Origin: Escherichia coli | GTDB taxonomy: Bacteria; Pseudomonadota; Gammaproteobacteria; Enterobacterales; Enterobacteriaceae | NCBI RefSeq assembly: GCF_965641715.1 | Contig: NZ_OZ282453.1 | Reading direction: 5' to 3' (one strand) | Length of the DNA: 64,000 nucleotides | Made by a program: the position numbers and the translations under genes | The notes under the pieces: model-generated | The model's database searches: none | The model's input: the letters and a program-made list of their open reading frames with translations, nothing else | Told to the model about the DNA's origin: nothing | Shown here: one piece after another, positions 9,185 to 52,661 of the stretch | Layout of the letters: each line of letters begins with the position of its first letter | How positions within the stretch are numbered: the stretch's first letter is position 1

Positions 9185-9188
9185 GTGT

Positions 9189-9632: not shown

Positions 9633-9714
9633 CAAAAACATCCCTGAAAGTGGGTGCCGATAATACTGAAAATTTATTCCATTAAATGAGCATTGTCCTC
9701 TCTCATCCATTCCG

Positions 9715-11716: not shown

Positions 11717-12004
11717 GTTCTTTTTTCGCCCAATTATTTTCAAAAAAATTCCCGTGCACAAAAATTTGAGGAGGCGGTCGGTGTCCGGCAGGGACGGTTT
11801 TGTCCTGAAAACCTCCCCCCCCCCCTCTGACGGCCTCACCAGCGATTGCGAAAACATTCCATGACCTCGCGGTCACGGTCGGTTAATCGCTTCGCTGTGG
11901 TGCGTTCTGTGCGCCCTGTCCTGTTGGCTTTGTGCCCTGTCTCCTGTGTCTTCCATAAGTCACGCTGCCTTATCAGTCCACGTATCAGCCTGTTTTGCTC
12001 CTGT

Positions 12005-13951: not shown

Positions 13952-13952
13952 A

Positions 13953-14513: not shown

Positions 14514-14567
14514 CGGTGTACTCCATAAAGCTGAAAAAGGAGGCCGCAGCCTCCTCCTTACTCATGA

Positions 14568-15737: not shown

Positions 15738-15974
15738 GAAGGTTTTCTCGTATTGGTTAAGATTCAGGACGTGAAACCAACACGGAGGGAGCGCCGCCCG
15801 ACACTCTCGGCATCTCGCAGATCAACCCGGCATCGCGCAGGGGGTCAGGCGGCATTGTGGCGGCTCACGTCTGAGTGCCACACGCCAACATATACATAAA
15901 AATCAGTATGTAAACATCAGCCAGAATCACCGAACAACCTGGAACAACCACGAACAAATAATTTACAAAACCTG

Positions 15975-16000
15975 AAAAAAAGACCTGGAGAAAATCCAGG
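15975..16000 (-). terminator. Intrinsic terminator upstream of satellite capsid operon
   Basis: Hairpin cctgga/tccagg followed by T-run on minus strand, directly after ORF 16012..16260. Confidence 0.5.
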
Positions 16001-16011
16001 CCTTTATCGCT

Positions 16012-16260
16012 TTATTGTTTCACTGGATCCCGCATTCTGCGTCTTATTTTCCACAGATATTCGATCATCGCTTCCACCTGCTCACGATTGGTTGCGAAAA
16101 TTTCCCCGGTCAGTGAGCTGCGCAGAAAATCATGATGATCCACAACAAACAACGCATCGGAAGAAAGCAGACGGCGATATTTTTTTGCTGTCGTGGTTTC
16201 CAGATCATCAAAACCATGAAACTTTTTATGTTGCTGGACTTCTTCAAATGTCACTGGCAT
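16012..16260 (-). CDS. Hypothetical protein
   Basis: 82 aa ORF, 4-nt overlap with upstream ProQ-like gene. Confidence 0.4.
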   Translation of the reverse strand: MPVTFEEVQQHKKFHGFDDLETTTAKKYRRLLSSDALFVVDHHDFLRSSLTGEIFATNREQVEAMIEYLWKIRRRMRDPVKQ

Positions 16261-16793
16261 GTATCCCCCTTTGCCGCCCGGCGCTGGCGCTTGTGCTTCT
16301 CATTCAGCGCCATCAGCCGCGTTTCTGCCTCCTGCTGTTCCTGTGGTGTCACTTCCCCACATGGCTGGCCTTTCAGGTCGTATCGTACCCCACCAGCAAC
16401 CAGGGCGCGGTAATAGCGCGGAGACTGCGCATAAGATGCCAGCGTCGCACGTAATGCCCCCGGCCCGAATGCCAGCCCCCTGACGGCGAGATCCTGCATC
16501 AGGTCGTCGAATATCCCCACCTTAAGCGGCTTCGGTGCTTCCCTGTTGAATAAGTCAGGCCACATCTCAGTGAGGCGGTTAACGCGCCTGCGGTTTTTGC
16601 GCTGGCGTTTGGTCATATGCCGCCACGGTGTCACCCCTGTGGGCTGCCCTTTGCGGCTCTGCTGTGCGTTCTGATTGCCGGGTATCACTTTATGCGCCGA
16701 TGTGGTTTTATCCCGCTCTTGCGCCGCCTGCGTCGTTTTCTGCGGCGTGCCGTAAATGCCTTTCGGTTTTCGGTTAATGGTCAGCTTTGTCAT
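16251..16793 (-). CDS. ProQ/FinO-domain RNA-binding protein with basic N-terminal extension
   Basis: ..PLKVGIFDDL..RATLASYAQSPRYYRAL..RYDLKGQPCGEV.. parallels ProQ N-terminal domain. Confidence 0.6.
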   Translation of the reverse strand: MTKLTINRKPKGIYGTPQKTTQAAQERDKTTSAHKVIPGNQNAQQSRKGQPTGVTPWRHMTKRQRKNRRRVNRLTEMWPDLFNREAPKPLKVGIFDDLMQDLAVRGLAFGPGALRATLASYAQSPRYYRALVAGGVRYDLKGQPCGEVTPQEQQEAETRLMALNEKHKRQRRAAKGDTCQ

Positions 16794-16957
16794 GCCTTCC
16801 CCTGTAATTACTCTGTTCGCTGTTGTGAATTAAAACGGTATGTTATCCCCGTACAGGTCATCGTGCTGGCCTGTCTGTTGTTTTGCCCTGTTCAGTGCGT
16901 CAGTGGCCTGCCCCTGTTGGCCTTTTTTGCCGCCCGGTCGCGCCGTTCTCGCACTGA

Positions 16958-17254
16958 TTACGCTGTCTGCGATGACCTGCCAGCCCTGCCGCGTTTCGCC
17001 GTTCTGCCCTGTCCACTGCTTACCTGCATGTTACCCGCCACGCTCACCAGTTCGCCTTTGCGGTGTTTTGCCAGTGCGTCGGCCTGTCTGCCAAACGCCA
17101 GGACGGATAACCACATCGTCGCCGTTCCGTCATCTGCCTGGCTGCATGGCAGGGGAACCGCCATACTCGCCATCGCCATTTGTGTTCCCTTGCTGGTGGT
17201 CTTTAACTGCGGGTCAGCCACCAGCCGCCCGTAAGCCGCTATCTGTGCTGTCAT
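16958..17254 (-). CDS. SSB-like OB-fold protein (tentative)
   Basis: 98 aa, ..GRLVADPQLKTT..TATMWLSVLAFGRQA..KGELVSVAG.. resembles short phage SSBs. Confidence 0.35.
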   Translation of the reverse strand: MTAQIAAYGRLVADPQLKTTSKGTQMAMASMAVPLPCSQADDGTATMWLSVLAFGRQADALAKHRKGELVSVAGNMQVSSGQGRTAKRGRAGRSSQTA

Positions 17255-17318
17255 GCTGTCTGCTCTCCGGTTTTAACGTTGATGGTTACGCTTGTTTACA
17301 CCCTTACGGTGAAATTCT

Positions 17319-17441
17319 GCGGGTTATAATCGCACTTTTGCGGGTTATAACTGCCGTTTTGCGGGTTACGTGCGGGTTATTGATTTCCTTTTTATTCATA
17401 CAGTTAATGCACTTATATACATGATAACCCGCATAACCCGC
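17319..17441. repeat. Iteron cluster, candidate satellite origin (4 direct GCGGGTTAT + 2 inverted, AT-rich centre)
   Basis: Immediately downstream of primase/helicase gene. Confidence 0.6.
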
Positions 17442-17464
17442 AACTTTTCACCTCACACAGGGGG

Positions 17465-19588
17465 TTAATCTTCTGCCTCAGGCTGGAACATCAGCACGTA
17501 AAAAACATGCTGCTTCCCCCCAATTTTGCCGAGCGCCTTTTTCTTGTAACGGCGATCGTTACCCGCTTCCAGCATTCCGGCAGCACTCAACGCGCGGGCA
17601 AAGTGAGACGGATTAAATCCCTGTGCTATCTCACCCTCAAATACATGCGGGAACGTGTAAAAACGGAACTCGTCATCTTCGTTTCTGATACTCCCCTTTC
17701 TGTATCCGGCAAGTTCTTTAATCGATAAATCACGCTCGTCGGTATTGGGCCACGGAAGGTATCTGCTGAATCCGAACGACGCTAAAAAAGCTTCTGCCTG
17801 TTCAACCATCTGTTTAAATTCCCTGTTACCCGTGCCGAACTCCTTCACCCAGGCATTAAAATTATGCTGTATGGCATCGCGGCATTCCTGCTCATCCCAG
17901 CCAGTAACATGACCTGAAAGCACAAGCGCGGCCTCCAGTATGGCAAATCGCTCCCCCACACGGTGAACCTGTTCGCCGTAGCTCTCCGGTATCAGGTTGC
18001 GCCACCGCTCACGGCATGTCCTTACCGTGTCCTTTGCCTCCTGCTGGTGTTCTGCCAGCCATTTAACCCACTCACGACCCGCCGCCCCGTGATTTTCTGT
18101 CCAGGCATCCTTTAACGCGTCTGCGTGCGCCTTTCCGGTGCTGTATTCGTGAAATTGCGTGGCTTTTTCCATCGGAACGTTAAGCAGGCGGACAAGCTGC
18201 CCCGCTTTGACTTTTATCCCCTCCGTTTTGAGGAATGTCTCAACGTCCATTTCTCCGGTGCTGATTGCCACCGTGCGCCAGTGTTTGATCTCCCTGTTGC
18301 CGCCGTCCTTCGCCCCCTGTAATTTCCCCGAACCGTTAAACAGCGTATAGGCTGACGTGGACACCTCCCGCGCGTTTCCGGCCTGGCCTATTTCATCCAG
18401 GGGTAAAAGCCCGTCATTGTGTGCCTCTGCTTCGTTGGCGATACCTAACGCTGTGCCGTACCAGGTCAGCCGCTGCGCGTCCGGCTCTCCCCATAAACTT
18501 GATGCGATGTTCTGTGTGGTGGTTTTCCCTGCCGATGACTGTTCGAAAAGATGTACCCCGAAGCCGTCAGCGCCCACCAGCCCGATTAATGGTGCGGATA
18601 ACGATACCGCCACACCCAGCATCATGGACGGATTACCACCAGCCAGCCGCGCAACGGTATCGCGCCAGCCCTCCGCCGTTCCTGCCACGGAATAGCCATT
18701 AACAGCAGCCGTTTTTCCGGTAAACAGGACTGGCTTTTCGCAATCACCAATGACCGAACCGTCCGGCATGATGTACGCGCCAAAATGCCAGCCCGTTGTT
18801 GTGCTTAACTGCCATTCCTCATGGCTTCCGCTTAACTGCATCCAGTCAGCCAGGATAGCCCTGTATTTACCGTTGGTTGTTACGTTCAGTCCGTGGTCTT
18901 TCAGCAACCGCCAGCCGTCACGGTCGCCAATGCCACCGCACGGAACCGCCATTGTGATGACTTCATGGTTTGCTAATTTTTTCCAGCGCATCACGCGGTA
19001 ATGCTCTTTACCGATTGTCCCCGTTCCCAGTAGTTCAAGCGGGGAACATAACCACGTCTCAGGCCGGATAATTTCGCCTGACTGCTTATCCACTTTTGGC
19101 GTTACCCAGAAAACACCATCGGCGCGACTTTCAACGCGGGGCTTTAATTCATCATCGCCCTGGATTTCTGTGATTTTTTTCTTTAAGGGCAACACCAGAC
19201 TTTCCCCGCGCTCGTATTCGTCTTTGAGGCGAGGCAACTGGTCGGATAAATCCGCCGGGCTGATGTCAGTTATCCCCGCGTATTCGTATACGGTCTTCAC
19301 GCCAGCCACAGCCAGCAACGTGACGATCTGTGTAAGGCTACGTTCAGTGATGTGCCCTGCGCGGTAAACACGCACACACTGACGGCTATCATCAATAATT
19401 TGATAACCGGTAATATCTTTCAGGTGTTCATCTGACAGAACGACAGGCGGCACATTGTCGGCGGCAATATGCTTACCTGCCCATTCCTGCCACTCTTTCG
19501 CATGGCTCCACGCATCACTACCCGCAAAGATGATAACCTCCGTCATTTTGTCGGCTGGCTGGTGCTTTAAGTTTGGTGCGCGCTTCAT
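17465..19588 (-). CDS. Primase/helicase-type replication protein
   Basis: 707 aa with Walker A (SSAGKTT), P4-alpha/PICI pri-rep-like position next to iterons. Confidence 0.65.
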   Translation of the reverse strand: MKRAPNLKHQPADKMTEVIIFAGSDAWSHAKEWQEWAGKHIAADNVPPVVLSDEHLKDITGYQIIDDSRQCVRVYRAGHITERSLTQIVTLLAVAGVKTVYEYAGITDISPADLSDQLPRLKDEYERGESLVLPLKKKITEIQGDDELKPRVESRADGVFWVTPKVDKQSGEIIRPETWLCSPLELLGTGTIGKEHYRVMRWKKLANHEVITMAVPCGGIGDRDGWRLLKDHGLNVTTNGKYRAILADWMQLSGSHEEWQLSTTTGWHFGAYIMPDGSVIGDCEKPVLFTGKTAAVNGYSVAGTAEGWRDTVARLAGGNPSMMLGVAVSLSAPLIGLVGADGFGVHLFEQSSAGKTTTQNIASSLWGEPDAQRLTWYGTALGIANEAEAHNDGLLPLDEIGQAGNAREVSTSAYTLFNGSGKLQGAKDGGNREIKHWRTVAISTGEMDVETFLKTEGIKVKAGQLVRLLNVPMEKATQFHEYSTGKAHADALKDAWTENHGAAGREWVKWLAEHQQEAKDTVRTCRERWRNLIPESYGEQVHRVGERFAILEAALVLSGHVTGWDEQECRDAIQHNFNAWVKEFGTGNREFKQMVEQAEAFLASFGFSRYLPWPNTDERDLSIKELAGYRKGSIRNEDDEFRFYTFPHVFEGEIAQGFNPSHFARALSAAGMLEAGNDRRYKKKALGKIGGKQHVFYVLMFQPEAED

Positions 19589-19899
19589 TTTGCCTTTCCC
19601 CGTTCACGAATAATTTCACGTACTGCCTTAATGCGTTCCATTCCTGTAACGCGCATGATTCTGTCGATGTCGCTTAATTCTGCTGGTGGTGCTTTACTTA
19701 CCAAGGTGAACTCCCTGTCAAAGCGCATATGTGACGACACGCAGGGATGCGCATAACCTTCGCGGATATAGGTCACACGAAAATCATCGACGGTTTTGAT
19801 CGTTATCGTGCTGCCGTATTTATCCTGGAAAATATCGCCGGGGCGGATTTCAGGCCGAGCGGGGCCGCTGGCAGTAAAGCCAGAATTTTTCTTTTTCAT
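19585..19899 (-). CDS. Hypothetical protein
   Basis: 104 aa, 4-nt overlap with primase gene. Confidence 0.4.
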   Translation of the reverse strand: MKKKNSGFTASGPARPEIRPGDIFQDKYGSTITIKTVDDFRVTYIREGYAHPCVSSHMRFDREFTLVSKAPPAELSDIDRIMRVTGMERIKAVREIIRERGKAK

Positions 19900-19904
19900 G
19901 TTTT

Positions 19905-20153
19905 TTACTCCAGAGGCAGCTTTTTAGCGGCGAGCTCAATATCAGATGTCAGAGAAACCTGTGTATTTGCCAGGTCTAACAACAAAGAAATAAGAATTTC
20001 TTCTCTGCTATCGGATTTATCGGTGCTAAGGCTGTTCATCCACATATTGACGACTTCCCTGATTTTTTTCGCAGAGTGCAGGGCTTCAAATGCCAGGTCT
20101 TCAATATCATGTTTATTTCGCATAATCGCCCCCGCCATTTTCACAATCAGCAA
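19905..20153 (-). CDS. Hypothetical protein
   Basis: 82 aa ORF in early leftward operon. Confidence 0.3.
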   Translation of the reverse strand: MLIVKMAGAIMRNKHDIEDLAFEALHSAKKIREVVNMWMNSLSTDKSDSREEILISLLLDLANTQVSLTSDIELAAKKLPLE

Positions 20154-20358
20154 TCAGGATGGCTTTTGCCTCATTCAGCGCCATATCAGCACTAAATTGC
20201 ATAACAGCCAGTGAGTGAGGAACGAAAGCCCCGGCATATTCTGTTTCGCTGGTGGCGTGCTTATGCGCCTTGTCTGCGATAACAGAAATATCAATCAGCG
20301 CGTGCATCAGCGTTTTGATGGCTTCGGCGGCTGCGTCCGGACGGGTGTTATTGCACAT
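20113..20358 (-). CDS. Hypothetical protein
   Basis: 81 aa ORF, first gene of leftward operon. Confidence 0.3.
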   Translation of the reverse strand: MCNNTRPDAAAEAIKTLMHALIDISVIADKAHKHATSETEYAGAFVPHSLAVMQFSADMALNEAKAILIADCENGGGDYAK

Positions 20359-20651
20359 GGCGCACCTCCTGACGAATACGGGCAGCGAATACCATCACGC
20401 AGCCAGCCGGGGATTGCTGGCGTGCTTCCTGTTCGCTAGTGGCCTCAATGGTAATCACACGCGGTTGTGCCGTGCTCAGGGCGATAAAACGCCAGATGTA
20501 TTTATTCAGGTTGTGCGAGTCCCGCCCTTGCGGGTGTGTGGTATGATTTAACATAGCTACCTCGATAATCTTGCTATCGTTGGTGGTTAGAAGCCCGGTT
20601 AGTGTTAGCGCACTGCCGGGTTTCGTCGTTTGTATTTCAATAAAACCATTG

Positions 20652-20729
20652 GTGTGTTTCATGTTATTTTGGAGTGAAACACACGTCAAGCCTTTTTTGT
20701 ATTTCTTTTTTGTGTATACTGAAACACAC
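20652..20729. promoter_or_regulatory. Divergent promoter/operator region with three TGAAACACAC half-sites
   Basis: Perfect 10-bp inverted repeat GTGTGTTTCA..TGAAACACAC plus third copy overlapping a TATACT -10. Confidence 0.45.
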
Positions 20730-20750
20730 CAAATTTGAGGAGTTTCAGTT

Positions 20751-21056
20751 ATGGCGACTACCAACAAAAACGCTAAATCACAATTGACCACCGTCAGAGT
20801 CCCCCACGATGTTATGGAGGGCATGGAATCCGTAAAACTGGACGGCGAAAGCAACGCCGGATTCATAGTAACCGCCATGCGCGGTGAGATCGCCCGCCGC
20901 CAGGCAGAAGGAAGCGGAGAAAATCCCCTGGTTTCTTCGCTCGATGCACTGGCGCAGGTGGAAAAAATTGGAGTCAAGGCTGCCGAGGAGATCGGGCAAC
21001 TCGTCACCGTCGCGCGTGAAGAACTCCAGCGACGCAAGGTCAAAGAGCAGGAATAG
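20751..21056 (+). CDS. Ribbon-helix-helix-like regulator (tentative)
   Basis: GAGGAG RBS; N-terminal TTVRVPHDVMEGMESV..AGFIVTAMRGEI pattern. Confidence 0.45.
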   Translation: MATTNKNAKSQLTTVRVPHDVMEGMESVKLDGESNAGFIVTAMRGEIARRQAEGSGENPLVSSLDALAQVEKIGVKAAEEIGQLVTVAREELQRRKVKEQE

Positions 21057-21113
21057 CCACTATCAGCGCCATAGTTTGAGGAACGCAGGCGCATTGCTTT
21101 ACAGGACAGCACC

Positions 21114-21293
21114 ATGAGCGACACAGAATCAACCAAAACACCATCACCAACTCGTAAGAGACGACGCAAAAATATAGCGCATGAACATGAATCAGAAAGA
21201 TTCGCACCTTGTTCGTTTGCTCTTGAGAAATTCCTTAAAGAGCACAGGAAAAAGCTCTCGTTGCAAACCTTGGAACGAACCAAATCTGACTGA
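21114..21293 (+). CDS. Small basic protein (59 aa)
   Basis: ORF below track cutoff, followed by two intrinsic terminators. Confidence 0.25.
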   Translation: MSDTESTKTPSPTRKRRRKNIAHEHESERFAPCSFALEKFLKEHRKKLSLQTLERTKSD

Positions 21294-21359
21294 TCACATT
21301 GCCCACCAGCCGCAAATGTGGCATTGTTGGTGATGCTTTTGTTTTCCCTTGTTCCCACT

Positions 21360-21388
21360 GGCGACCCTTTTGCGGTCGCCTTTGTTTT
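21360..21388 (+). terminator. Intrinsic terminator
   Basis: ggcgaccc tttt gcggtcgcc followed by T-rich run. Confidence 0.45.
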
Positions 21389-21483
21389 GCCTGTTATCCG
21401 GCAATAGTGGCGCTTCGTCACCTGTCTGATATAATTCCACAGCTTATATTCATTTTTTGCGCAGTAGGTTAATTGTTCGCAAG

Positions 21484-21515
21484 GGCGCTCCGGCAACGGG
21501 GCGCTTTTTGTTTTT
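21484..21515 (+). terminator. Intrinsic terminator with GCAA tetraloop
   Basis: gcgctccg GCAA cggggcgc then tttttgttttt. Confidence 0.4.
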
Positions 21516-21673
21516 ACCCACCAGCACAATAAAAATCTTCATTTTCCATTTTTGTAAAATTTCATGCTTTCCGGACGACTGGTCATATGTCATTTTTTAG
21601 CAGAAGATTTTGCCTTGCTGGTGGGTAGCTTCCCGGTCAACACGATGTACCGTATAATCAACACCGCGTGTGG

Positions 21674-22252
21674 TTACTGAATACGCTCACCAAAGTAAAA
21701 CTCAGGCTGGTATTCACGTATCAGCCTTTTTTCTTCTTCCTCCAGCTCACGCTTTTTGCGCTTACATGCCTGTAGCTCCCTCCCCTTCTCACTGGCACTT
21801 ATCTGGTATTGCTCTTTGCGGCGGGAAAAATCCTGTAATGCGCCCCACGGGATACCATAAGCCCCCGTTTTTCTGATACCCGGTATCACATTTCTGAATA
21901 CCCAGTTACTGAAACGATGAGCAAATGTGCCAGGCGTCGTTGCTTTGCGGCTGCGGGCTATTAGTTTGTAGAAACCTGACTCGGAGATAATGCTCATATT
22001 CTGATTTCCTCCGGGGGTGTAAGTTAAATTTACTCCCTTTTCGTCATCATCAAGCATCTGCAACGCCGTACGCGAATTGGTCAATTCCAGCGCAGCACAA
22101 ACATCCTTTGCAACAAACCACGGATCGCCGTTTAGATACACCACACGAACATCCACGCCATCAAAGCGCAGAACGACCAGATCACGAATATCACAGAATT
22201 TTTTCACATGACGTGCGTCACCCTTGCCCGTCACGGCAATATTTTTATTCAT
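21674..22252 (-). CDS. Bro-N domain protein (antirepressor-like)
   Basis: ..FDGVDVRVVYLNGDPWFVAKDVCAALE.. matches Bro-N consensus. Confidence 0.7.
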   Translation of the reverse strand: MNKNIAVTGKGDARHVKKFCDIRDLVVLRFDGVDVRVVYLNGDPWFVAKDVCAALELTNSRTALQMLDDDEKGVNLTYTPGGNQNMSIISESGFYKLIARSRKATTPGTFAHRFSNWVFRNVIPGIRKTGAYGIPWGALQDFSRRKEQYQISASEKGRELQACKRKKRELEEEEKRLIREYQPEFYFGERIQ

Positions 22253-22309
22253 TGCTTTTTACCTCACATACAAAAAACCCCGCATTGCGTGGTGCGGGGT
22301 TGTCGGTAA

Positions 22310-22588
22310 TTACTTATTGGCGTTTTTGTATGGGCTGTTTACTTCCTTTACTCCTGGCGGATGCATAACCCACCAGAGCACATCAGAGAGCAACCAGGAA
22401 ACAGACACTTTCCCTAAATGAGCACGAGCAGGAAATGCTCCCTCCTGTTCAAGTACCCAACGTCTGCTTCTTGAAAGCCCGGTACGATTGGCACACTCAT
22501 GTTCGCGTATACGGCGATCATACGGTTCGCCATGATCTTTCAGAATCTGAATGCGTTCTTCGGGTGTAGGATAAATAAATTTTTGCAT
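22310..22588 (-). CDS. AlpA-family regulator / excisionase-like
   Basis: HECANRTGLSRSRRWVLEQEGAFP..VSWLLSDVLWWV; internal ATG, ORF track start 22618 is TTG. Confidence 0.6.
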   Translation of the reverse strand: MQKFIYPTPEERIQILKDHGEPYDRRIREHECANRTGLSRSRRWVLEQEGAFPARAHLGKVSVSWLLSDVLWWVMHPPGVKEVNSPYKNANK

Positions 22589-22651
22589 AAAAATATCACC
22601 TATAAAAAAACCCGCCAAAAGACGGGTTGATTATATCTCATTTAATTTAGC

Positions 22652-22873
22652 TCAGGGTTTCCATTCACCTTTTACCCATTCCAGCACCTCAGATAAGCGC
22701 CAGACTTTTGTTTGTGGGCCAATACATATTTTTCGTGGAAATTTTCCTTCCTTTTCAAGTAACGATCTGTGTCTCCTGCCAAGAGCGGTTAACCATGCAC
22801 ATTCATCCTCCTTAATCATCCTGTCGATTGTTTCATCATTTTCAAGTTCTTCACGCGTAACTATTTGAATCAT
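22652..22873 (-). CDS. AlpA-family regulator / excisionase-like
   Basis: DECAWLTALGRRHRSLLEKEGKFP..VWRLSEVLEWV; start uncertain (22885, 22873 or 22819). Confidence 0.6.
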   Translation of the reverse strand: MIQIVTREELENDETIDRMIKEDECAWLTALGRRHRSLLEKEGKFPRKICIGPQTKVWRLSEVLEWVKGEWKP

Positions 22874-24074
22874 TACTGTCACCACTAATTTGCTTATTCA
22901 GATAGTCGTACCACCAGTTCATAGCTTCTTTTTTTCTGTCCATATACTGGCTTCTGTTATAAACCCCGGCAACACCGCCTAATGTGTGCCCAAGCAACTG
23001 TTCAACCACATTATGTTCAAAACCATGATCACTTAGTTTTGTGGCAAACACTCTTCGCATATCATGCGCCGTCCATTTCTCCGAGTGTTTCATCCTTTTC
23101 CATGTCTTACCGATAGTTACGCTTGCCGTACACTGACGCATATCAAACCCAATCACATTTTCTTTGTTACCTGTTATTTTTTTTAACGTAACTAACCAGT
23201 TAAACATGCCATCAGGAATCGGTCTGATTATTTCCCTGCCATTTTTGCTATGATCAGCGGGAACGCGCCATAATTTCTTATCAAAATCCCACTCTACCCA
23301 GGACGACAGTAATACTTCTGACAGTCGACAACCAAAAACTACCAGGAAACGTAAAATAATTCGGTTTTCATATGATAATTCGTGATTGTCATAATCAGTA
23401 TTAATACTTCGCCATAAATCTCTGATTTCATCATCTGTTAAAACCCTGCTTCTTCGCGCAGACTTTTTTCCCACATCACAGACCTCAAGATCATCAATTT
23501 CATGACTAATCGCGTATTTTCTTACCCTACAAAATTTAAGCGCCTGTTTTGATATACGCAACAAAGCTCCGGCCTGTACAGGTGCTACTTTTTTTATTTT
23601 GTCAAAACACTTAATCCACATAGATATAGAGCAATCACTAAGTGGTACATGACCAATCACCGGATAAATATGTTTACCAAAGCACTGCCTGATATGTTCT
23701 GCTCCCCTACGCTTATCCATTGCATAATTATCAAGCCAGTATTCAAGTGCCTCACGAACGGTAACAGGTTGCAAGGTGGCTTCCCGTTCAATTTTTATCT
23801 GAATCCGTGGATCTCTGCCCTCCGCAAGCCAGGTTCGACACTGATCGCGCATCTCTCTCGCTGATTTGAGACTCAGATCAGGATATTTTCCAAGTGTCAG
23901 CCAGATGGGCGCGGTTCCCCTTCCCGCCAGTCTGTAAAAGAAAACAAAACTAACACATCCGTATTTACTGACCCGTACCGAAAGCCCGTTACCATCAGCG
24001 ATGGTTTCCTGCCTCTCACTCCTGCGCCCAAGCAGGGAACGAAGTTTTTTATCGCTCAGTTTGTTTAGCGCCAT
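22851..24074 (-). CDS. Tyrosine integrase, P4 type (satellite)
   Basis: MALNKLSDKKLRSL.. N-terminus, C-terminal HxxR..Y catalytic region; ORF track start 24110. Confidence 0.85.
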   Translation of the reverse strand: MALNKLSDKKLRSLLGRRSERQETIADGNGLSVRVSKYGCVSFVFFYRLAGRGTAPIWLTLGKYPDLSLKSAREMRDQCRTWLAEGRDPRIQIKIEREATLQPVTVREALEYWLDNYAMDKRRGAEHIRQCFGKHIYPVIGHVPLSDCSISMWIKCFDKIKKVAPVQAGALLRISKQALKFCRVRKYAISHEIDDLEVCDVGKKSARRSRVLTDDEIRDLWRSINTDYDNHELSYENRIILRFLVVFGCRLSEVLLSSWVEWDFDKKLWRVPADHSKNGREIIRPIPDGMFNWLVTLKKITGNKENVIGFDMRQCTASVTIGKTWKRMKHSEKWTAHDMRRVFATKLSDHGFEHNVVEQLLGHTLGGVAGVYNRSQYMDRKKEAMNWWYDYLNKQISGDSNDSNSYA

Positions 24075-24094
24075 GTGATTTATAACCCGTTTTT

Positions 24095-24115
24095 GCAATA
24101 CACAGTGCAATACAC
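24095..24115. repeat. Tandem GCAATACAC motifs, candidate integrase arm-type sites (right arm)
   Basis: gcaatacacagtgcaatacac just upstream of int; copy at 9271..9291. Confidence 0.4.
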
Positions 24116-24245
24116 AAATGATGAAAACAGCCAGAACCTTCCAGAAAAAACAAAAACGACGAACAAGAAAAAATCTTTTTCTTTCATTTGGTTACTAAAA
24201 AAATCAGGACAGGTCGCACTGTTGTTACGGCGTGATGTTACTTTC

Positions 24246-24259
24246 TTTGTGAAAAAATT
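24246..24259. repeat. Satellite junction core, right copy (tttgtgaaaaaatt)
   Basis: First 7 bp identical to 9189..9195; encodes ..FTK of the terL N-terminal fragment. Confidence 0.55.
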
Positions 24260-25273
24260 CACCCGCGCCGAGACCTGCTCCTTCGCCTTTTTCGCCAGAC
24301 GACGCAGATCATCCCAGCGTTTACAGATGCCCAGGCCGGGATTCGCTTTCTGCCAGACCGTTTCATCAAACGGATCATCTCCCTCATCGAGCGTGTAAAT
24401 GATCGCAAAGTAAGAGTCGTCTTTTACCGCGCCCTCCACGTCACTGTTATAGCCACGCAATACCTTAATGGCGTAATCACGCTGCTCGTAACAAATCCCT
24501 TCCTTGTTAAACCCTGCCGTGGTGATACCAAATAAAAGGGACTGCAGACGGGCACCGGTTGCCGTTTCCAGAACGTCCCACACGTCACGGGTTTTATGTG
24601 CATGCAGCTCATCAATAATGGCGCAGTGGATGTTCAGACCGTCCAGGTTGTTTGCATCCGAGGAAAGCGGTTCAAATTTTGATGCGCTCTGCTCCTGGTA
24701 GATCGCCAGCTTGTTGAAATCAAATAACCGCCCGAGTGTCGACCGGGCTTTTCTGACCATATTTTTGGCGTCTTCAAACACGATTCTGGCCTGGTCACGC
24801 GTGGTTGCGGCTGAATACACCTCAGCTCCACCTTCACCATCTGCCCCCGTCATATACAGGCCGATACCCGATGACAGAGTTGATTTTGCGTTTTTACGGG
24901 CGACTTCGTTGTACGCCGTCCGGAACCGGCGCACCATCACCGGACGTCCGCTGCCATCGCTGCGCATGACAACTTCCCCGGTCTCTTCATTCACCAGCGG
25001 AATGACAAAACCAAAAATATTAATGAGGATAAATACATGCCAGTCCATCAACTCAATGGGCTGGCCTGCCAGCGCCCCTTTTACATGAGGCACAAATTTG
25101 TAGAAATTCAGGATGTGCTGCGCACGGGGTTCACTGAAATAAATCCCCCGCTCTTCGCCGTACTTCAGATCATCAAGAAAACGCTGGCAGGCCAGACGGA
25201 CAAATTCCCCAGCAACAATTTCTCCTGCAACAACACGTTCGGCGTAGCGGATCCCGTCAGCCACTTTTGCCAT
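24253..25273 (-). pseudogene. Terminase large subunit, N-terminal ATPase fragment (gene split by satellite)
   Basis: ORF 24080..25273: first ~340 aa align to TerL N-terminus (VARKNAKST, AIIDELH), then 54 unrelated residues read into the satellite. Confidence 0.8.
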
Positions 25274-25755
25274 CAGTCTCTCGCTTTTAAAAGCTCTGCC
25301 AGCGGATCAACATCATCCGGTCCGGCGATATTTACTTTCGCCCGGCTTGCCGGTGACATACCAAACTCTGCAAGCATTGCCCGGATCCGCTTCCAGGCAT
25401 CCGCTTTCATTGCCGCCGCGGGGTGCGCCTTAATCAGTACATCACCGCTCTGCGTTTCCGTGCGGTAGGTATACCCCTCAACATCGAGTGTTTCGCAGTG
25501 ATGCCGATATTCGGTGTAGGCTTCCACCAGCAACTCGAGCGCACGCGCATCAAGCTGAGAAATGATCCCTTCCGCATTCAGCTCTTCCGCCATTCGCCTG
25601 AACCAGTACTTCCCCTGAGCCCCTAAATGCTGCGGAATTTTAGGAAGACCTTTTTCATCCTTTTTAGCGGTTTTTTTGGGGTCTTTAACGGGGCGCTTTG
25701 AGGGATTGCCTCGTATCAAATGCAGGCGTGGCGGGGTTTTCGGAGGTCCTGACAT
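25273..25755 (-). CDS. Terminase small subunit (helper prophage)
   Basis: 160 aa, MSGPPKTPPRL.. start, stop overlaps terL start. Confidence 0.7.
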   Translation of the reverse strand: MSGPPKTPPRLHLIRGNPSKRPVKDPKKTAKKDEKGLPKIPQHLGAQGKYWFRRMAEELNAEGIISQLDARALELLVEAYTEYRHHCETLDVEGYTYRTETQSGDVLIKAHPAAAMKADAWKRIRAMLAEFGMSPASRAKVNIAGPDDVDPLAELLKARD

Positions 25756-28858: not shown

Positions 28859-28935
28859 TGGTCCGCCACCGAGGACTCGAACCTCGCACCATCAACTTAG
28901 AAGGTTGATGCTCTATCCCGATGAGCTAGTGGCGG
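28859..28935 (-). tRNA. tRNA-Arg (anticodon UCU)
   Basis: Cloverleaf with acceptor CCGCCAC/GTGGCGG, anticodon loop CTTCTAA, TTCGAGT T-loop, encoded CCA. Confidence 0.8.
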
Positions 28936-28936
28936 T

Positions 28937-29012
28937 TGGTGGCCCTTGCTGGATTTGAACCAGCGACCTGGCGATTATGAGTCGCTCGCTCTCACCACTG
29001 AGCTAAAGGGCC
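28937..29012 (-). tRNA. tRNA-Ile2 (anticodon CAU, ileX/ileZ-like)
   Basis: GGCCCTTTAGCTCAGTGG..CTCATAA..GGTTCAAATCC..CCA, near-identical to E. coli ileX as recalled. Confidence 0.8.
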
Positions 29013-41875: not shown

Positions 41876-42145
41876 ATGAGCGAACAGTACCTGATAACGC
41901 TCGATGAGTGGAAGCCAAAACGGTTCAGTCTCCCAATAACAAACACTACCCTGGTGAAATACGGAAAACTAGGATACATCGTTCCAAGACCACAAAAAAT
42001 TCGTGGGCGTTGGCTGATAGATCGCCGGGCAGTATTTGTTGGACCTGGTGAAACGGGAATTGCGCCGGAAATTCATACTGGCGATGATGATGCACTGAAG
42101 GAGATTTTAACTCATGTCACCGAGGCCACGAAAAAACAGCACTGA
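41876..42145 (+). CDS. Excisionase-like protein
   Basis: Call by position only: small ORF immediately upstream of and overlapping int. Confidence 0.4.
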   Translation: MSEQYLITLDEWKPKRFSLPITNTTLVKYGKLGYIVPRPQKIRGRWLIDRRAVFVGPGETGIAPEIHTGDDDALKEILTHVTEATKKQH

Positions 42146-43232
42146 CGTAACCGGTCTTTACGAAAAGTTTGATCGCAGAACTGGCAGGGTTTACTACCAG
42201 TATAAAAACCCTGTGACTGGAAAATTTCACGGTCTCGGAACAGACAAAGGCAAAGCAGAAAAAATCGCTTCCACAGCCAATCAGCGAATAGCTGCAGCAG
42301 AAGCTGAATATTTCATGCGCAAAATTGATGAAAGTCCGTCAGCAACAAAACGTCGGGGTATCAGATTAAAGGCATGGGTTGATCGATATCTGAAAATACA
42401 GGACGCGCGACTGAAAAATGGAGATATTGCAGCTACAACTCACAAAGAAAAAGCCCGAATGGCTGCATACCTGGTTTCCCGTCTGGGAAACCACCCATTG
42501 AAAGAACTGGAAGTAAGAGACTTTGCATTAATACTGGATGAGTGGCTGGATAAAGACATGGTCAGCACAGCGAGAGTAAATCGTGGATTATGGGTTGATA
42601 TTTATAAAGAAGCACAGCATGCAGGGGAAGTTCCTCCTGGATGGAATCCTCCGGAGGCTACCCGTAAACCGATCCCTAAAGTAACCAGAGCCAGACTCAC
42701 CCTAGAGGACTGGCAAAAAATTTACAATTCAACACCAGAAAAACACTTTATCCGTAACGCAATGCTTCTTGCGATTGTTACTGGTCAGCGCCGTGATGAC
42801 ATTTGCCACATGCGTTTTTCAGATGTGTGGAACGAACACTTGCATATCACCCAGGGAAAAACCGGAATGCGTCTGGCGTTACCGCTTACGCTACGCTGTG
42901 ATGCCATTGGAATATCGCTAAAAGAAGTGATTGATGGATGCAAGGACAGAATATTGAGTCCATACCTGATTCATAGTCGGCACCAGAAACAACCAAAACC
43001 AATGAGTAAAGATAACCTGAGCGACTACTTTGCTAAAGCGCGGGATCTGGCAGGAATAACTCCACCAGCAGGAAAAACACCACCAACATTTCATGAACAA
43101 CGCTCCCTGTCAGAACGACTGTACCGCGCACAGGGTATCGATACAAAAACATTACTGGGACATAAAGTCCAAGCAACCACCGATCGTTATAACGATACTC
43201 GTGGTCAGGAATGGGTTAAATTGGTTGTTTGA
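42114..43232 (+). CDS. Tyrosine integrase (helper prophage)
   Basis: 372 aa lambda-family integrase at prophage end. Confidence 0.85.
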   Translation: MSPRPRKNSTDVTGLYEKFDRRTGRVYYQYKNPVTGKFHGLGTDKGKAEKIASTANQRIAAAEAEYFMRKIDESPSATKRRGIRLKAWVDRYLKIQDARLKNGDIAATTHKEKARMAAYLVSRLGNHPLKELEVRDFALILDEWLDKDMVSTARVNRGLWVDIYKEAQHAGEVPPGWNPPEATRKPIPKVTRARLTLEDWQKIYNSTPEKHFIRNAMLLAIVTGQRRDDICHMRFSDVWNEHLHITQGKTGMRLALPLTLRCDAIGISLKEVIDGCKDRILSPYLIHSRHQKQPKPMSKDNLSDYFAKARDLAGITPPAGKTPPTFHEQRSLSERLYRAQGIDTKTLLGHKVQATTDRYNDTRGQEWVKLVV

Positions 43233-43335: not shown

Positions 43336-43803
43336 CTAATCTTGATCAGGTTCCTGCTTAGAATAATGTTTTCCAACAATAAATGCCGTAACCAATGCAA
43401 CAAGATCTATTGAAACGAGAGCTCCAGCAAGAACAGTCTCCCCCATGACACCAAAGACAGCAGCAACGAAGATAATCAATATCGCCAGCCAAAAAGCCTT
43501 TGTTTGACCATCTCTGGCAATATCAATGGTATCAGCCACCGTTTTGTGGCGATGAGCCTGCTCCTTTTCAGTCAACTCAACAAGCCTATTTGCAAGCCCT
43601 GGCATCAGTTGATCATACTTTTTAAGCATTGATGGCGGAGGAACCGGCCCCTGAAAATGCTGGCAAACAATAGCTCGCACCTGCGGGCTCTCCAAAACCC
43701 TGTTTAAGACTTCTGGATTTTCGATTACTCGAGAAACCAGTTCATTGTCCTTTTGTTCTTCACAAGTGAGTTTGGTGTTCTCACTTTCTTTTTGATCTGG
43801 CAT
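43336..43803 (-). CDS. Membrane protein (soluble N-domain + two C-terminal TM helices), possibly YmfA-like
   Basis: 155 aa cargo gene between int and chromosomal potC. Confidence 0.4.
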   Translation of the reverse strand: MPDQKESENTKLTCEEQKDNELVSRVIENPEVLNRVLESPQVRAIVCQHFQGPVPPPSMLKKYDQLMPGLANRLVELTEKEQAHRHKTVADTIDIARDGQTKAFWLAILIIFVAAVFGVMGETVLAGALVSIDLVALVTAFIVGKHYSKQEPDQD

Positions 43804-43984: not shown

Positions 43985-44291
43985 AGTCACTCCTGAGTTC
44001 AATGAGATTTCAAACGGATTCAAAGTGAATCATGTTAGGTAATTCTAATACCACATTATGTGTTTTTTCAACACGAAGAAATCGCATCAAAAATCTCATT
44101 CGGAAAGTGATATGGGTAAACAAACTGGAATACTTTTCTGTCCTAGTGTGCTCGCCATGTATAAAAATGCTGTAAAATGCGTGGTCCTGTTTTGGGGAAA
44201 AGTTTTGGAGAGATTTTGGAGAAAGGAAAAAATTGAATAAATTCAAAATCCTGAAAGTGCTCCACCTTATGAATAAGAAGGTAGAACTCGA

Positions 44292-45086
44292 ATGATCGGT
44301 CGACTGCTTCGCGGCGGTTTTATGACCGCTATCTACGCGTACCTGTATATCCCAATCATTATTTTGATTGTGAACTCTTTCAACAGCTCGCGCTTTGGCA
44401 TCAACTGGCAGGGTTTTACCACTAAATGGTATAGCCTGCTGATGAACAACGACAGTCTGTTGCAGGCAGCTCAGCATTCATTGACGATGGCGGTGTTTTC
44501 AGCGACGTTTGCTACGCTTATCGGTTCACTGACTGCAGTTGCGCTGTACCGTTATCGCTTTCGCGGTAAGCCGTTCGTTAGCGGAATGCTGTTTGTGGTG
44601 ATGATGTCGCCAGATATTGTGATGGCGATTTCGCTGCTGGTGCTGTTTATGCTGCTGGGTATTCAGCTTGGCTTCTGGTCGCTGCTGTTCTCGCATATCA
44701 CCTTCTGCCTGCCATTTGTGGTGGTGACGGTGTATTCGCGCCTGAAAGGTTTTGACGTGCGAATGCTGGAAGCGGCGAAAGATCTCGGTGCCAGCGAATT
44801 TACCATTCTGCGAAAAATCATTCTGCCACTGGCAATGCCAGCGGTGGCGGCGGGCTGGGTGTTAAGCTTTACCCTGTCGATGGACGATGTGGTGGTTTCT
44901 TCGTTCGTCACTGGGCCGAGTTATGAAATTCTGCCGTTAAAAATTTATTCGATGGTCAAAGTCGGCGTATCGCCGGAAGTTAACGCGCTGGCAACCATAT
45001 TACTGGTGCTGTCGCTGGTGATGGTTATTGCCAGCCAGCTTATTGCTCGTGATAAAACGAAAGGTAACACAGGGGACGTTAAATGA
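44292..45086 (+). CDS. potC: Spermidine/putrescine ABC transporter permease PotC
   Basis: 264 aa, sequence and length match PotC; overlaps potD start. Confidence 0.95.
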   Translation: MIGRLLRGGFMTAIYAYLYIPIIILIVNSFNSSRFGINWQGFTTKWYSLLMNNDSLLQAAQHSLTMAVFSATFATLIGSLTAVALYRYRFRGKPFVSGMLFVVMMSPDIVMAISLLVLFMLLGIQLGFWSLLFSHITFCLPFVVVTVYSRLKGFDVRMLEAAKDLGASEFTILRKIILPLAMPAVAAGWVLSFTLSMDDVVVSSFVTGPSYEILPLKIYSMVKVGVSPEVNALATILLVLSLVMVIASQLIARDKTKGNTGDVK

Positions 45087-46129
45087 AAAAATGGTCACGC
45101 CACCTGCTCGCGGCGGGTGCTCTGGCACTGGGCATGAGCGCCGCTCACGCCGATGACAACAATACGCTGTATTTCTACAACTGGACCGAGTACGTGCCGC
45201 CAGGACTGCTTGAACAGTTCACCAAAGAAACCGGTATTAAGGTTATCTATTCGACTTACGAGTCGAACGAAACCATGTACGCCAAGCTGAAAACGTACAA
45301 AGACGGTGCCTACGACCTGGTGGTTCCTTCAACCTATTACGTCGATAAAATGCGTAAAGAAGGGATGATCCAGAAGATCGACAAATCGAAGTTAAGCAAT
45401 TTCAGCAACCTCGATCCAGACATGCTCAACAAGCCGTTTGACCCAAATAACGACTACTCCATTCCGTATATCTGGGGGGCGACGGCGATTGGCGTTAACG
45501 GTGATGCGGTAGATCCGAAATCCGTTACCAGCTGGGCCGATCTGTGGAAGCCTGAGTACAAAGGCAGCCTGCTGCTGACCGACGATGCCCGTGAAGTGTT
45601 CCAGATGGCGCTGCGTAAGCTGGGCTACTCCGGTAACACCACCGATCCGAAAGAGATTGAAGCTGCATATAACGAGCTGAAAAAACTGATGCCAAACGTG
45701 GCAGCCTTTAACTCCGATAACCCGGCTAACCCGTACATGGAAGGCGAAGTTAACCTCGGCATGATCTGGAACGGTTCTGCTTTCGTTGCACGCCAGGCGG
45801 GTACGCCTATTGACGTGGTGTGGCCGAAAGAAGGCGGTATATTCTGGATGGACAGCCTGGCGATCCCGGCAAATGCCAAAAACAAAGAAGGCGCGCTGAA
45901 ATTGATCAACTTCCTGCTGCGCCCGGATGTGGCAAAACAGGTTGCTGAAACTATCGGTTATCCAACGCCAAACCTTGCGGCGCGTAAGCTGTTAAGTCCA
46001 GAAGTGGCGAACGATAAGACGCTCTACCCGGATGCTGAAACCATTAAAAATGGCGAATGGCAGAATGACGTTGGCGCAGCCAGCAGCATTTATGAAGAGT
46101 ATTATCAGAAGCTGAAAGCAGGACGTTAA
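45083..46129 (+). CDS. potD: Spermidine/putrescine-binding periplasmic protein PotD
   Basis: 348 aa with signal peptide, matches PotD. Confidence 0.95.
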   Translation: MKKWSRHLLAAGALALGMSAAHADDNNTLYFYNWTEYVPPGLLEQFTKETGIKVIYSTYESNETMYAKLKTYKDGAYDLVVPSTYYVDKMRKEGMIQKIDKSKLSNFSNLDPDMLNKPFDPNNDYSIPYIWGATAIGVNGDAVDPKSVTSWADLWKPEYKGSLLLTDDAREVFQMALRKLGYSGNTTDPKEIEAAYNELKKLMPNVAAFNSDNPANPYMEGEVNLGMIWNGSAFVARQAGTPIDVVWPKEGGIFWMDSLAIPANAKNKEGALKLINFLLRPDVAKQVAETIGYPTPNLAARKLLSPEVANDKTLYPDAETIKNGEWQNDVGAASSIYEEYYQKLKAGR

Positions 46130-46135
46130 TTCAGC

Positions 46136-46168
46136 AAACGGGCGGTGGTATTACCGCCCGTTTTTTAT
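46136..46168 (+). terminator. Intrinsic terminator after potD
   Basis: aacgggcggtggtattaccgcccgtt hairpin followed by tttttt. Confidence 0.6.
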
Positions 46169-46240
46169 TTAGCAAGGATGTGGTTAATGAGTCAGGACAG
46201 TAGAGTTTTATCCCGCTCTTTCGTCGGTATTGTGGTCCGC

Positions 46241-46275
46241 TTGTAGACCTGATAAGCGTAGCGCATCAGGCAATG
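46241..46275. repeat. REP element
   Basis: ttgtagacctgataagcgtagcgcatcaggc palindromic REP consensus overlapping cobB 3' end. Confidence 0.6.
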
Positions 46276-46284
46276 CTTCCTGCT

Positions 46285-47106
46285 TTATAATCCCTTCAGC
46301 AACTTTTCAACAAATTCTGGCACCACCTGGCTTGCCGGGCCGTAATATTTCTCGGCAAATTCATTACCAACCTGACTCGGTTCAAGATTCAGTTCCACGG
46401 TGTGCGCGCCATGCAGTTTCGCTTCGTGAACAAACCCAGCCGCCGGATAAACATGCCCCGAAGTACCAATGGCAATGAAAATATCGGCCATCGACAACGC
46501 CATATAAATTTCATCCATGCCGAGTGGCATTTCGCCAAACCACACTACATGCGGGCGCAAGGGTGCCGGGAACTGGCAGCAATGGCATTTATCTTCTGGG
46601 GTAACGTCTCCGGTCCAGTCGAGAACCTGACCACTTTGTGAACAACGAACTTTCAGCAGTTCCCCATGCATATGAATCACATTGGTATTACCTGCGCGTT
46701 CATGCAGGTTGTCTATATTCTGCGTCACCAGCAAAAAGCGATCGCCGAGAGCATCTTGCAGTTTAGCCAGCGCAAGATGCGCGGCGTTAGGCTGAATTTC
46801 TGGCTGCTGCAGCTGTCGACGACGGGCGTTATAAAACGCTTGCACCAGTTCAGGATCGCGATCGAAACCTTCCGGCGTTGCCACATCTTCAACCCGATGT
46901 TCTTCCCACAGGCCATCTGCGGCGCGAAAGGTACGAATACCTGATTCCGCAGAAATTCCTGCCCCTGTCAGTACGAGTACTCTTGGTTTTTCCATTGCTT
47001 CCGGCACCACTTTATCTCTGAAAAAAATACGCTGACGCAAACGCTCGCGCAGGCGGCGTTTATTTTTACGAAAACGACTTAACCGATGACCCCGACGCGA
47101 CAGCAT
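46285..47106 (-). CDS. cobB: NAD-dependent protein deacylase CobB (long isoform)
   Basis: [19 protein letters not shown].. N-terminus, sirtuin core; 273 aa. Confidence 0.9.
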
Positions 47107-47121
47107 AGCAACCTCTGTTGT

Positions 47122-48033
47122 TTAATCGGTTAGATGTAGGAAGGCCGCACCACGCATTCCTCCCGCATCACCGTGGCGCGCGCGTTCAATGCGCGGAACA
47201 CGAGCTACAGGTAAGAGATGACGAGGCAGCCTGTCCGCCAGTTGCGTTGTGATTGCCGGGAAATTCGATAAGCCACCACCAATGACGACCAGGTCAGGGT
47301 CAACAATGGTCAGGATATTTCCCAGACAAACCGCTAATAAATCCAGATAACGCTCAACGTGCGCCCTTGCCTGCTCATCGCCTTGATCATAAAGCGCAAT
47401 AATTTCGGGAGCCTGCAACGGTTGATGATAATAGTGTTGATACAGCCACGCAAAACCGCGACCAGACAGATAATTTTCAATGCAGCCATGCTGACCACAG
47501 CCGCAGCGGCGTAACGGGAAATCCAACACCATCATGGTTAACGCATCAACCGGCAGACGCATATGGCCAAACTCGCCGGTAATGTAGCTTTTACCGGTAA
47601 TCGGTTTGCCGTTGAAAATCAGCCCGCCGCCAACGCCGGTGCCGAGAATCAACCCCATCACCAACGGATATTGCGTAAATTCGTCATCCCAGGCTTCTGA
47701 AAGGGCAAAACAGTTGGCATCGTTATCAAGGCGTACATCGCGATCAAGACGTGCGCTCAGGTCGGCACGCAGCGGTTTGCCGCTGGCAGCGGGGACATTA
47801 GCGGCATACAGCGTACCATCTTCTGTTTCCGGCATTCCCGGAATACCGATGCCGACAGAACCTTTACAGCCAAAACGTTGATCAGCTTCAGCTACCAGCT
47901 CACACACTGCATCTAAAAATGCGTCATAGCTGTCACGCGGTGTCGGCAGCCGCTTTTCCCACTGCAACTGCCGACCGCTATCAAACACGCCAAGCGCAAT
48001 TTTTGTTCCACCAATATCAAACCCGTAATACAT
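47122..48033 (-). CDS. nagK: N-acetyl-D-glucosamine kinase NagK
   Basis: [17 protein letters not shown].. start; 303 aa; ORF track start 48093. Confidence 0.9.
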
Positions 48034-48061
48034 TGCCGCTCCTTGTTTTAATGTACTGCCT

Positions 48062-51310
<3,249 letters not shown>

Positions 51311-51460
51311 TCAATCGGCTAAATTGCCATGTTTTATCATCAATCTTGCCGCCTGATCTTAATCTGAAAAATCATCCAATACAGACAGATACCCATTACA
51401 CCTCGGGTCATAACCCGCAGGATCAACCGCATGTAAATTAAAAAAGAGCGTGTTGTCCTG

Positions 51461-52534
51461 ATGAAACAAAAAGAGCTATGGATTAACCAGATCAAAGGGT
51501 TATGTATTTGTCTGGTGGTGATTTATCACTCGGTCATTACCTTTTATCCGCATATGACCACTTTTCAGCATCCGTTATCGGAAGTCCTGAGCAAATGCTG
51601 GATCTATTTCAATCTTTACCTTTCACCCTTTCGTATGCCGGTTTTTTTCTTTATATCCGGCTATTTGATTCGCCGCTATATCGACAGCGTACCGTGGGGA
51701 AATTGTCTCGATAAACGGATCTGGAACATCTTCTGGGTGCTGGCGCTTTGGGGCGTGGTGCAGTGGCTGGCGTTAAGTGCGCTGAACCAGTGGCTGGCAC
51801 CTGAGCGCGATTTAAGCAATGCCTCCAATGCCGCTTATGCCGATTCCACCGGTGAGTTCCTGCACGGGATGATCACCGCCAGCACCAGCTTGTGGTATCT
51901 GTATGCGTTAATTGTCTATTTCGTGGTATGTAAAATTTTTAGCCGTCTGGCGCTGCCACTATTCGCCTTGTTTGTACTGCTGAGTGTGGCGGTTAATTTC
52001 GTTCCCACGCCGTGGTGGGGAATGAACAGTGTGATCCGCAATTTGCCTTATTACAGCCTTGGCGCATGGTTTGGCGCAACAATAATGACCTGTGTTAAAG
52101 AGGTGCCGTTGCGCCGCCATCTGCTGATGGCTTCTTTGCTTACCGTTCTGGCGGTCGGTGCCTGGTTGTTTACTATCTCGCTGCTGTTGTCGCTGGTATC
52201 GATTGTGGTGATCATGAAGCTGTTTTATCAATACGAGCAACGATTCGGTATGCGCTCCACCAGCCTGCTGAATGTGATTGGCTCCAACACCATTGCTATC
52301 TACACCACCCATCGCATTCTGGTTGAAATATTCAGCTTAACTCTACTTGCGCAAATGAACGCAGCACGCTGGTCGCCGCAAGTCGAACTGACACTCCTGC
52401 TGGTTTATCCCTTTGTCAGTTTGTTCATCTGTACTGTTGCGGGCTTGCTGGTAAGAAAACTTTCACAGCGTGCATTCAGCGATCTGTTGTTCTCCCCGCC
52501 TTCACTGCCCGCTGCCGTCAGTTACTCCCGCTAA
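51461..52534 (+). CDS. ycfT: Inner membrane acyltransferase-family protein YcfT
   Basis: 357 aa polytopic membrane protein between lolC and mfd. Confidence 0.85.
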   Translation: MKQKELWINQIKGLCICLVVIYHSVITFYPHMTTFQHPLSEVLSKCWIYFNLYLSPFRMPVFFFISGYLIRRYIDSVPWGNCLDKRIWNIFWVLALWGVVQWLALSALNQWLAPERDLSNASNAAYADSTGEFLHGMITASTSLWYLYALIVYFVVCKIFSRLALPLFALFVLLSVAVNFVPTPWWGMNSVIRNLPYYSLGAWFGATIMTCVKEVPLRRHLLMASLLTVLAVGAWLFTISLLLSLVSIVVIMKLFYQYEQRFGMRSTSLLNVIGSNTIAIYTTHRILVEIFSLTLLAQMNAARWSPQVELTLLLVYPFVSLFICTVAGLLVRKLSQRAFSDLLFSPPSLPAAVSYSR

Positions 52535-52661
52535 GCCATCGCCCCAGCCGGGGCGATTCAATTTGCTAAACCATGTCGATTACGGATAATGAACAGCATT
52601 GCTTATCAGAGATATGCCCCCATATGTTGAGGCATATCCTAACGAGAATCTGACAACCGTT

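Follow-up and report, generated by a model that had tools for sequence, protein, structure and literature searches.

Two probably independent, natural and widespread alleles at the potD-cobB locus of an Escherichia coli genome: deletion of ymfA-ycfZ and a 273-residue CobB

Why potD and cobB lie so close together in the stretch of Escherichia coli DNA analysed here (64,000 nucleotides in all, hereafter the window), and why its CobB ends six codons earlier than that of K-12, are the two questions raised by this locus. A preliminary description had put the interval at about 155 bp, had stated that K-12 carries ycfZ and ymfA there, and had given a K-12 CobB of 279 residues ending in KGLKAGSIA, against 273 residues here. 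The interval measured 155 bp (46130-46284), both genes were found in the MG1655 locus, and BLASTP and DNA alignment returned the 279 and 273 residues; aligned with K-12, the window differed in both its intergenic content and its CobB C-terminus. The observation was confirmed and its interpretation was partly supported. The preferred reading, held at a probability of roughly 95%, is that the window combines two independent, natural and widespread alleles, a deletion of ymfA-ycfZ and a cobB with its stop directly after Leu273, the latter being ancestral and the K-12 form derived.

The two genes were convergent. potD (45083-46129, + strand; 348 aa), the last gene of potABCD in the open reading frame list and so annotated in all matching genomes, had a stop codon ending at 46129. 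cobB (46285-47106, - strand), recognised from the open reading frame list and Pfam SIR2 as encoding a Sir2-family NAD+-dependent protein deacylase (long isoform, 273 aa), had a TAA stop at 46285-46287 ("tta" on the + strand), placed by alignment and allele-specific searches, and 46130-46284 was the stop-to-stop spacer. A pattern scan detected an intrinsic-terminator-like hairpin straight after the potD stop (46136-46173, + strand; hairpin 46136-46163 plus a T run), whose 12-bp stem, with seven G-C pairs, closed a 4-nt loop and was followed by the tail TTTATTT. By pattern match, the hairpin is a putative Rho-independent terminator; it was intact in the window and, by alignment, conserved in K-12, ET350, O157:H7 and N96.

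A REP-like palindrome (46243-46271, - strand) lay between the convergent genes, outside both, separated by 13 bp from the reverse-strand TAA of cobB. It matched the Z-type REP consensus at 28 of 29 positions (0 matches expected by chance), was the sole copy in the 64-kb window, and corresponded to the cobB-proximal of the two copies in K-12 by alignment with K-12, N96 and MS7163. For 46225-46290 the folding energy was -14.4 kcal/mol, not significantly different from that of shuffled sequences (z = -1.1); identification as a REP is therefore based on agreement with the consensus and on homology of position with the K-12 copy. The preliminary description had listed only a terminator and one REP in the spacer; both were present, but it had overlooked a 44-bp 5' remnant of ymfA.

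This remnant (46187-46230, + strand) was delimited by alignment as the end of a K-12 homology continuous from potC, and consisted of the start codon and first 14 codons of ymfA, with an AAGGA ribosome-binding site 5' of the ATG. In the spacer, AAGGATGTGGTTAATG preceded a short reading frame (46187-46249); fused to the sequence beyond, the stub read as a 19-codon open reading frame, MSQDSRVLSRSFVGIVVRL and a stop, ending at 46249. Its translation, MSQDSRVLSRSFVG..., was compared with the YmfA N-termini of STEC383 (MSQDSKVLSRAFLG...) and K-12 (MSQDSKVFFRIFLG...), and agreed with that of STEC383 (MSQDSKVLSRAFLGI..). The stub may be just debris; less probably, as it has its own ribosome-binding site, it could be translated into a putative small peptide. 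Among the rows examined from the 555 genomes that share the junction described below, the 19-codon frame carried no annotation.

The short gap between potD and cobB is very probably the product of a natural 1.29-kb deletion of two membrane-protein genes. The MG1655 locus (b1120-b1123; L001) had lolCDE-nagK-cobB followed by ycfZ and ymfA, and then potD, potC, potB and potA on the other strand. Against it, BLASTN of the window returned two collinear blocks with 97-98% identity in the flanking genes. The first (44270-46230 = L001 9643-7683) comprised the last potB bases, potC, potD, the terminator and the 44 bp of ymfA, and the second (46235-52626 = L001 6391-1) ran through to ycfT, resuming 31 bp past the K-12 cobB stop, which is 51 bp past the cobB stop of the window. 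Absent relative to K-12 were 1,291 bp (L001 6392-7682) holding ymfA from codon 15, the whole of ycfZ and the ycfZ-proximal REP. The products lost are a DUF3592 protein (YmfA) and a TPM-domain protein (YcfZ), both inner-membrane proteins of uncharacterised function.

The deletion junction was placed at 46230-46235 by the BLASTN map, the alignments and a search with a junction 55-mer. Four bases (46231-46234) aligned to neither block. Microhomology at the breakpoints amounted to about 2 bp (AT), or ATTG vs ATCG if one mismatch is allowed, and longer direct repeats were not visible at the breakpoints in the alignments. The exact breakpoint and the microhomology are uncertain within a few bases because the 16 bp to the right of the junction (TGTGGTCCGCTTGTAG) differed from K-12 at about four positions. 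The deletion took out ymfA from its codon 15 onward together with the whole of ycfZ and one of the two REPs, and left the 5' stub of ymfA fused to the REP lying 13 bp beyond the cobB stop. With microhomology of only about 2 bp at the junction, it probably arose by illegitimate recombination. Neither the potD terminator nor the coding sequence of cobB was touched, and loss of the two inner-membrane proteins is the expected consequence.

The deletion was shared with many other genomes. Of 5,426 complete E. coli genomes, 576 had potD and cobB contiguous when searched with a 1-kb query across the interval. The junction-centred 55-mer found the same junction, in full-length matches (all with at least 80% coverage), in 555 of the 5,426, so that the window-type deletion occurs in about a tenth of E. 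coli genomes. Its carriers included O157:H7, O145:H28, O157:H16 Santai, PCN061 and the commensal HS. ET350 and O157:H7 Z1767 had the identical junction, and their RefSeq annotation places potD beside an 822-bp cobB. O157:H7 and ET350 agreed with the window in gene order and in the CobB protein (WP_000952736.1, 273 aa) as well; cobB differed by 2-8 nt, and the window had 4 SNPs in the 155-bp spacer.

A second deletion allele was found in 15 genomes. The N96-type resembled the window in having lost both genes and in encoding a CobB of 273 aa, but its breakpoints were different, the ymfA ATG running straight into the final 27 bp of ycfZ (L004 3487-3516), and both REPs were kept in a spacer of 212 bp. 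The N96-type deletion is an independent event, and ymfA-ycfZ has been lost at least twice. The pair is dispensable in nature, which bears on the assignment of function to either gene. It is improbable that the loss was favoured by selection and was not neutral, an idea suggested by at least two independent deletions (555 + 15 genomes). In PMC10304320, YcfZ and YmfA appear only as table entries and the deletion is not mentioned. The locus is an ordinary presence/absence polymorphism, which hundreds of RefSeq genomes, O157:H7 among them, already show in their annotation; it involves no new mechanism and its biological weight is small. A further rearrangement was seen in FDAARGOS_1286, in which an IS200C copy was inserted between potD and ymfA (L012 3604-4062). 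The potD-cobB interval is a modest hot-spot of structural polymorphism.

Instead of having lost the two genes, the window might preserve an ancestral empty site, ymfA-ycfZ having been gained by insertion in K-12-like strains. The order lolCDE-nagK-cobB was kept across Kosakonia, Raoultella and Cronobacter (L008, L009, L010), but what followed cobB differed in each: MipA with a two-component system, a sugar-binding regulator, or potD itself. The site occupied by ymfA-ycfZ is thus an evolutionarily variable junction. In line with an empty site, Cronobacter had cobB adjoining potD without ymfA-ycfZ, and Kosakonia and Raoultella had unrelated genes at the junction. However, the window retained the ribosome-binding site, start codon and 14 codons of ymfA, which are not expected in an empty site; in strains that still have ymfA, the 44-bp stub was shown to belong to its coding sequence, the N96-type allele kept both ends of the gene pair, and B2 strains carried ymfA-ycfZ. 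An ancestral empty site is therefore very unlikely, and the stub with its continuous K-12 homology argues for a secondary deletion. Further back in evolution, ymfA-ycfZ may have been gained in the Escherichia lineage, which would leave the secondary-deletion reading of the window unaltered. In S. enterica LT2, cobB is adjacent to potD.

The CobB of the window was identical to K-12 CobB over 273 of 273 residues (BLASTP) and ended in ..EKLLKGL, whereas K-12 adds KAGSIA (279 aa; gene of 840 bp). Relative to K-12, with its collinear flanks and 1,291 additional bp, one base alone accounted for the different length of CobB: the + strand read GCTTTATAAT in the window and GCTTT-TAAT in K-12. The base missing in K-12 is 46287 (a on the + strand, T on the coding strand), and the coding strand read TTA TAA AGC AGG.. 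in the window and TTA AAA GCG GGA AGC ATT GCC TGA in K-12. The length difference had been ascribed to insertion of a T; a single T on the coding strand does account for it, but the direction of the change is the reverse, since CobB of the outgroups ends at 273-274 aa.

Frequencies of the two cobB alleles were obtained with megablast queries of 55 nt (window allele) and 54 nt (K-12 allele), placed so that no 28-nt seed could match without covering the indel. At least 3,279 of the 5,426 complete genomes had the window allele, all full length (O157:H7, O103:H2 and B2 strains among them), and 1,708 (about 31%) had the K-12 allele; 439 genomes fitted neither query, presumably owing to nearby SNPs that break the seeds, and are outside both counts. 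Protein search gave an E. coli cluster of 273 aa with 3,707 members and one of 279 aa with 904. In other genera, CobB orthologues were mostly 273-274 aa among the matches listed. In an alignment of 13 sequences (the window and 12 cluster representatives), 11 of the 12 others ended in ..LLK(G/D/S)L and only the K-12-type sequence (P0001) ran on. The ten orthologue clusters from outside Escherichia (Trabulsiella, Kosakonia, Enterobacter, Cronobacter, Franconibacter, Entomohabitans, Siccibacter, Raoultella and Klebsiella) all had ..K(G/D/S)L ends and 273-274 aa, and in Kosakonia, Raoultella and Cronobacter DNA a stop codon came straight after that of the C-terminal Leu. Salmonella CobB-L is likewise 273 aa (PMC10965786, PMC8603916).

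Together, the outgroup C-termini, the Salmonella length and the allele counts point to loss of a T in K-12 and to no gain in the window. The 273-aa CobB is, on these comparisons, probably the ancestral majority form, and K-12 probably carries an unusual derived one. In the K-12 type, loss of one T from TTA-T-AAA would have turned the TAA stop into a Lys codon, and the reading frame would then have extended by six codons (KAGSIA, 18 nt of read-through) to a TGA inside the REP. In a comparison of the K-12 cobB 3' end (L001 6337-6360) with 46262-46290 of the window, the KAGSIA tail was seen to end in the adjacent REP. K-12 is an unsafe "wild-type" yardstick here, the tail being a lineage-specific read-through into a REP; for CobB numbering, for engineering and for "frameshift" flags raised against K-12, the 273-aa form is to be taken as ancestral and commoner.

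In CobB, Pfam SIR2 (PF02146) matched residues 48-221 (E = 4.3e-54) over the full profile (1-180 of 180). The KAGSIA tail lay outside this domain and the catalytic core, and extended beyond the crystallised chain 1S5P (K-12 residues 40-274). H147, C155, C174 and H175-C176-C177 were invariant columns of the 13-sequence alignment; catalysis is assigned to His147 and Zn binding to cysteines C155, C174 and C176/C177 (PMC10965786). The 37-residue basic N-terminal extension and the internal Met38 start were identical to those of K-12, in which CobB-S is annotated from codon 38. The same arrangement, 273 aa with a 37-residue arginine-rich N-terminal extension and an internal Met38 start, is reported for CobB-L/CobB-S of Salmonella enterica (Tucker & Escalante-Semerena 2010, as cited in PMC10965786 and PMC8603916, to whose account this likeness is limited). 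The CobB of the window is predicted to be neither truncated nor defective.

Little credence can be given to the contrary idea that the 273-aa CobB is a truncated protein of impaired function confined to the lineage with the deletion, arising for instance as a side effect of it. The indel does lie just 57 bp from the deletion junction. The deletion, however, stopped 51 bp short of the cobB stop, MS7163 combined a 273-aa CobB with intact ymfA-ycfZ and HS a 279-aa CobB with the deletion, and outgroup CobB proteins had 273-274 aa. Impairment would also be unexpected because the Salmonella CobB-L of 273 aa is reported to be an active deacetylase (PMC10965786).

The two alleles occurred in every combination. 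ymfA-ycfZ was present together with a 279-aa CobB in K-12, STEC383 and EC416 (for EC416, the length comes from the 840-bp span 3508504-3509343 of its record and from the protein accession WP_000952737.1, which is shared), and with a 273-aa CobB (822-bp cobB) in the B2 strains MS7163 and FDAARGOS_1286. The pair was deleted together with a 273-aa CobB in the window, ET350, O157:H7 and N96, and with a 279-aa CobB in HS, which had the junction of the window. Linkage of the deletion to the cobB allele was rejected, as all four deletion-by-indel haplotypes were found. Four haplotypes within the 57 bp between junction and indel imply recombination (or recurrent mutation) very near the junction, at the REP. 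When HS was aligned (L007 2420-2600 vs window 46123-46303), K-12-type SNPs began a few bases past the right edge of the junction. Occurrence of the deletion allele on both O157:H7-like and HS-like flanks suggests that it may have spread by recombination across phylogroups.

That sequencing or assembly error produced both features, a spurious T truncating cobB and a mis-assembly collapsing ymfA-ycfZ, is extremely improbable. One-base indels beside A/T-rich runs are typical of such errors, and a read-level error at the T had been suspected; but at least 3,279 complete genomes, each assembled independently, had the same base, the stop was likewise placed in other genera, and the deletion junction recurred in 555 complete genomes.

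The housekeeping backbone around the locus (44292-52534; 8.2 kb) had no match above 99.0% identity in a complete RefSeq E. coli genome. Mismatches against K-12, ET350 and O157:H7 Z1767 clustered in patches of 3-4% divergence, at the potC 5' end, in potD (45292-45791) and in lolE/lolD (48792-49791), and the sequence was near-identical between the patches. The backbone is either mosaic or comes from a lineage whose genomes do not go by the name E. coli.

The preliminary description had further placed a ymfA-like membrane gene beside the prophage integrase. Relocation of ymfA to that site is scarcely tenable: the gene (43336-43803, - strand) and ymfA encode predicted membrane proteins of similar size (155 vs 153 aa), but they belong to DUF2335/phrog_3996 and DUF3592, respectively, with a BLASTP E of 0.38, and the DUF2335 gene occurred together with intact ymfA-ycfZ in EC416 and STEC383. 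The 155-aa product matched DUF2335 (PF10097; E = 2.8e-12) and PHROG 3996, "moron ... membrane protein" (E = 1e-41); that E of 0.38 was obtained against K-12 YmfA, and Pfam returned no DUF3592 match for it. By these profile matches the gene appears to be prophage cargo, a moron, and not a displaced ymfA. The order integrase-DUF2335-small ORF-potC was that of STEC383 and EC416 also, and this module was present in about 209 genomes. In O157:H7 a prophage integrase likewise adjoined potC; compared with O157:H7 Z1767, the window was about 890 bp longer between integrase and potC, where it had the DUF2335 gene and the small ORF.

The integrase (42114-43232, + strand) was identified from the open reading frame list and the comparison with K-12. 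K-12 homology began at 44270, where the prophage end abutted the last 22 bp or so of potB; to the left of 44270 everything was prophage, without homology to K-12 potA/potB, the prophage being integrated at the potB 3' end, and potC-potD lay more than 44 kb away from potA and the bulk of potB. The last 130 bp or so before potC (44163-44291) were common to 1,634 E. coli genomes, so the potB integration site appears to be commonly occupied.

Within the prophage, the large-terminase gene was apparently split into an N-terminal part (24080-25273; phrog_9 169-448) and a C-terminal part (8459-9184; phrog_9 449-673). Between the halves (region 8459-25755) was an element of about 15 kb with its own integrase (22851-24110), a primase (17465-19588), an anti-repressor, a repressor-like gene, a protease, a head-tail adaptor, an HNH endonuclease, a major head protein (14568-15737), a portal (12737-14041), and small (11360-11857) and large (9715-11376) terminase subunits. 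The host prophage itself carried another portal (7024-8265) and another major head gene (5176-6381). The element looks like a capsid-encoding satellite or a second phage inserted into terL. A tRNA-Arg(tct) and a tRNA-Met(cat) were found in tandem within the prophage (28859-29012).
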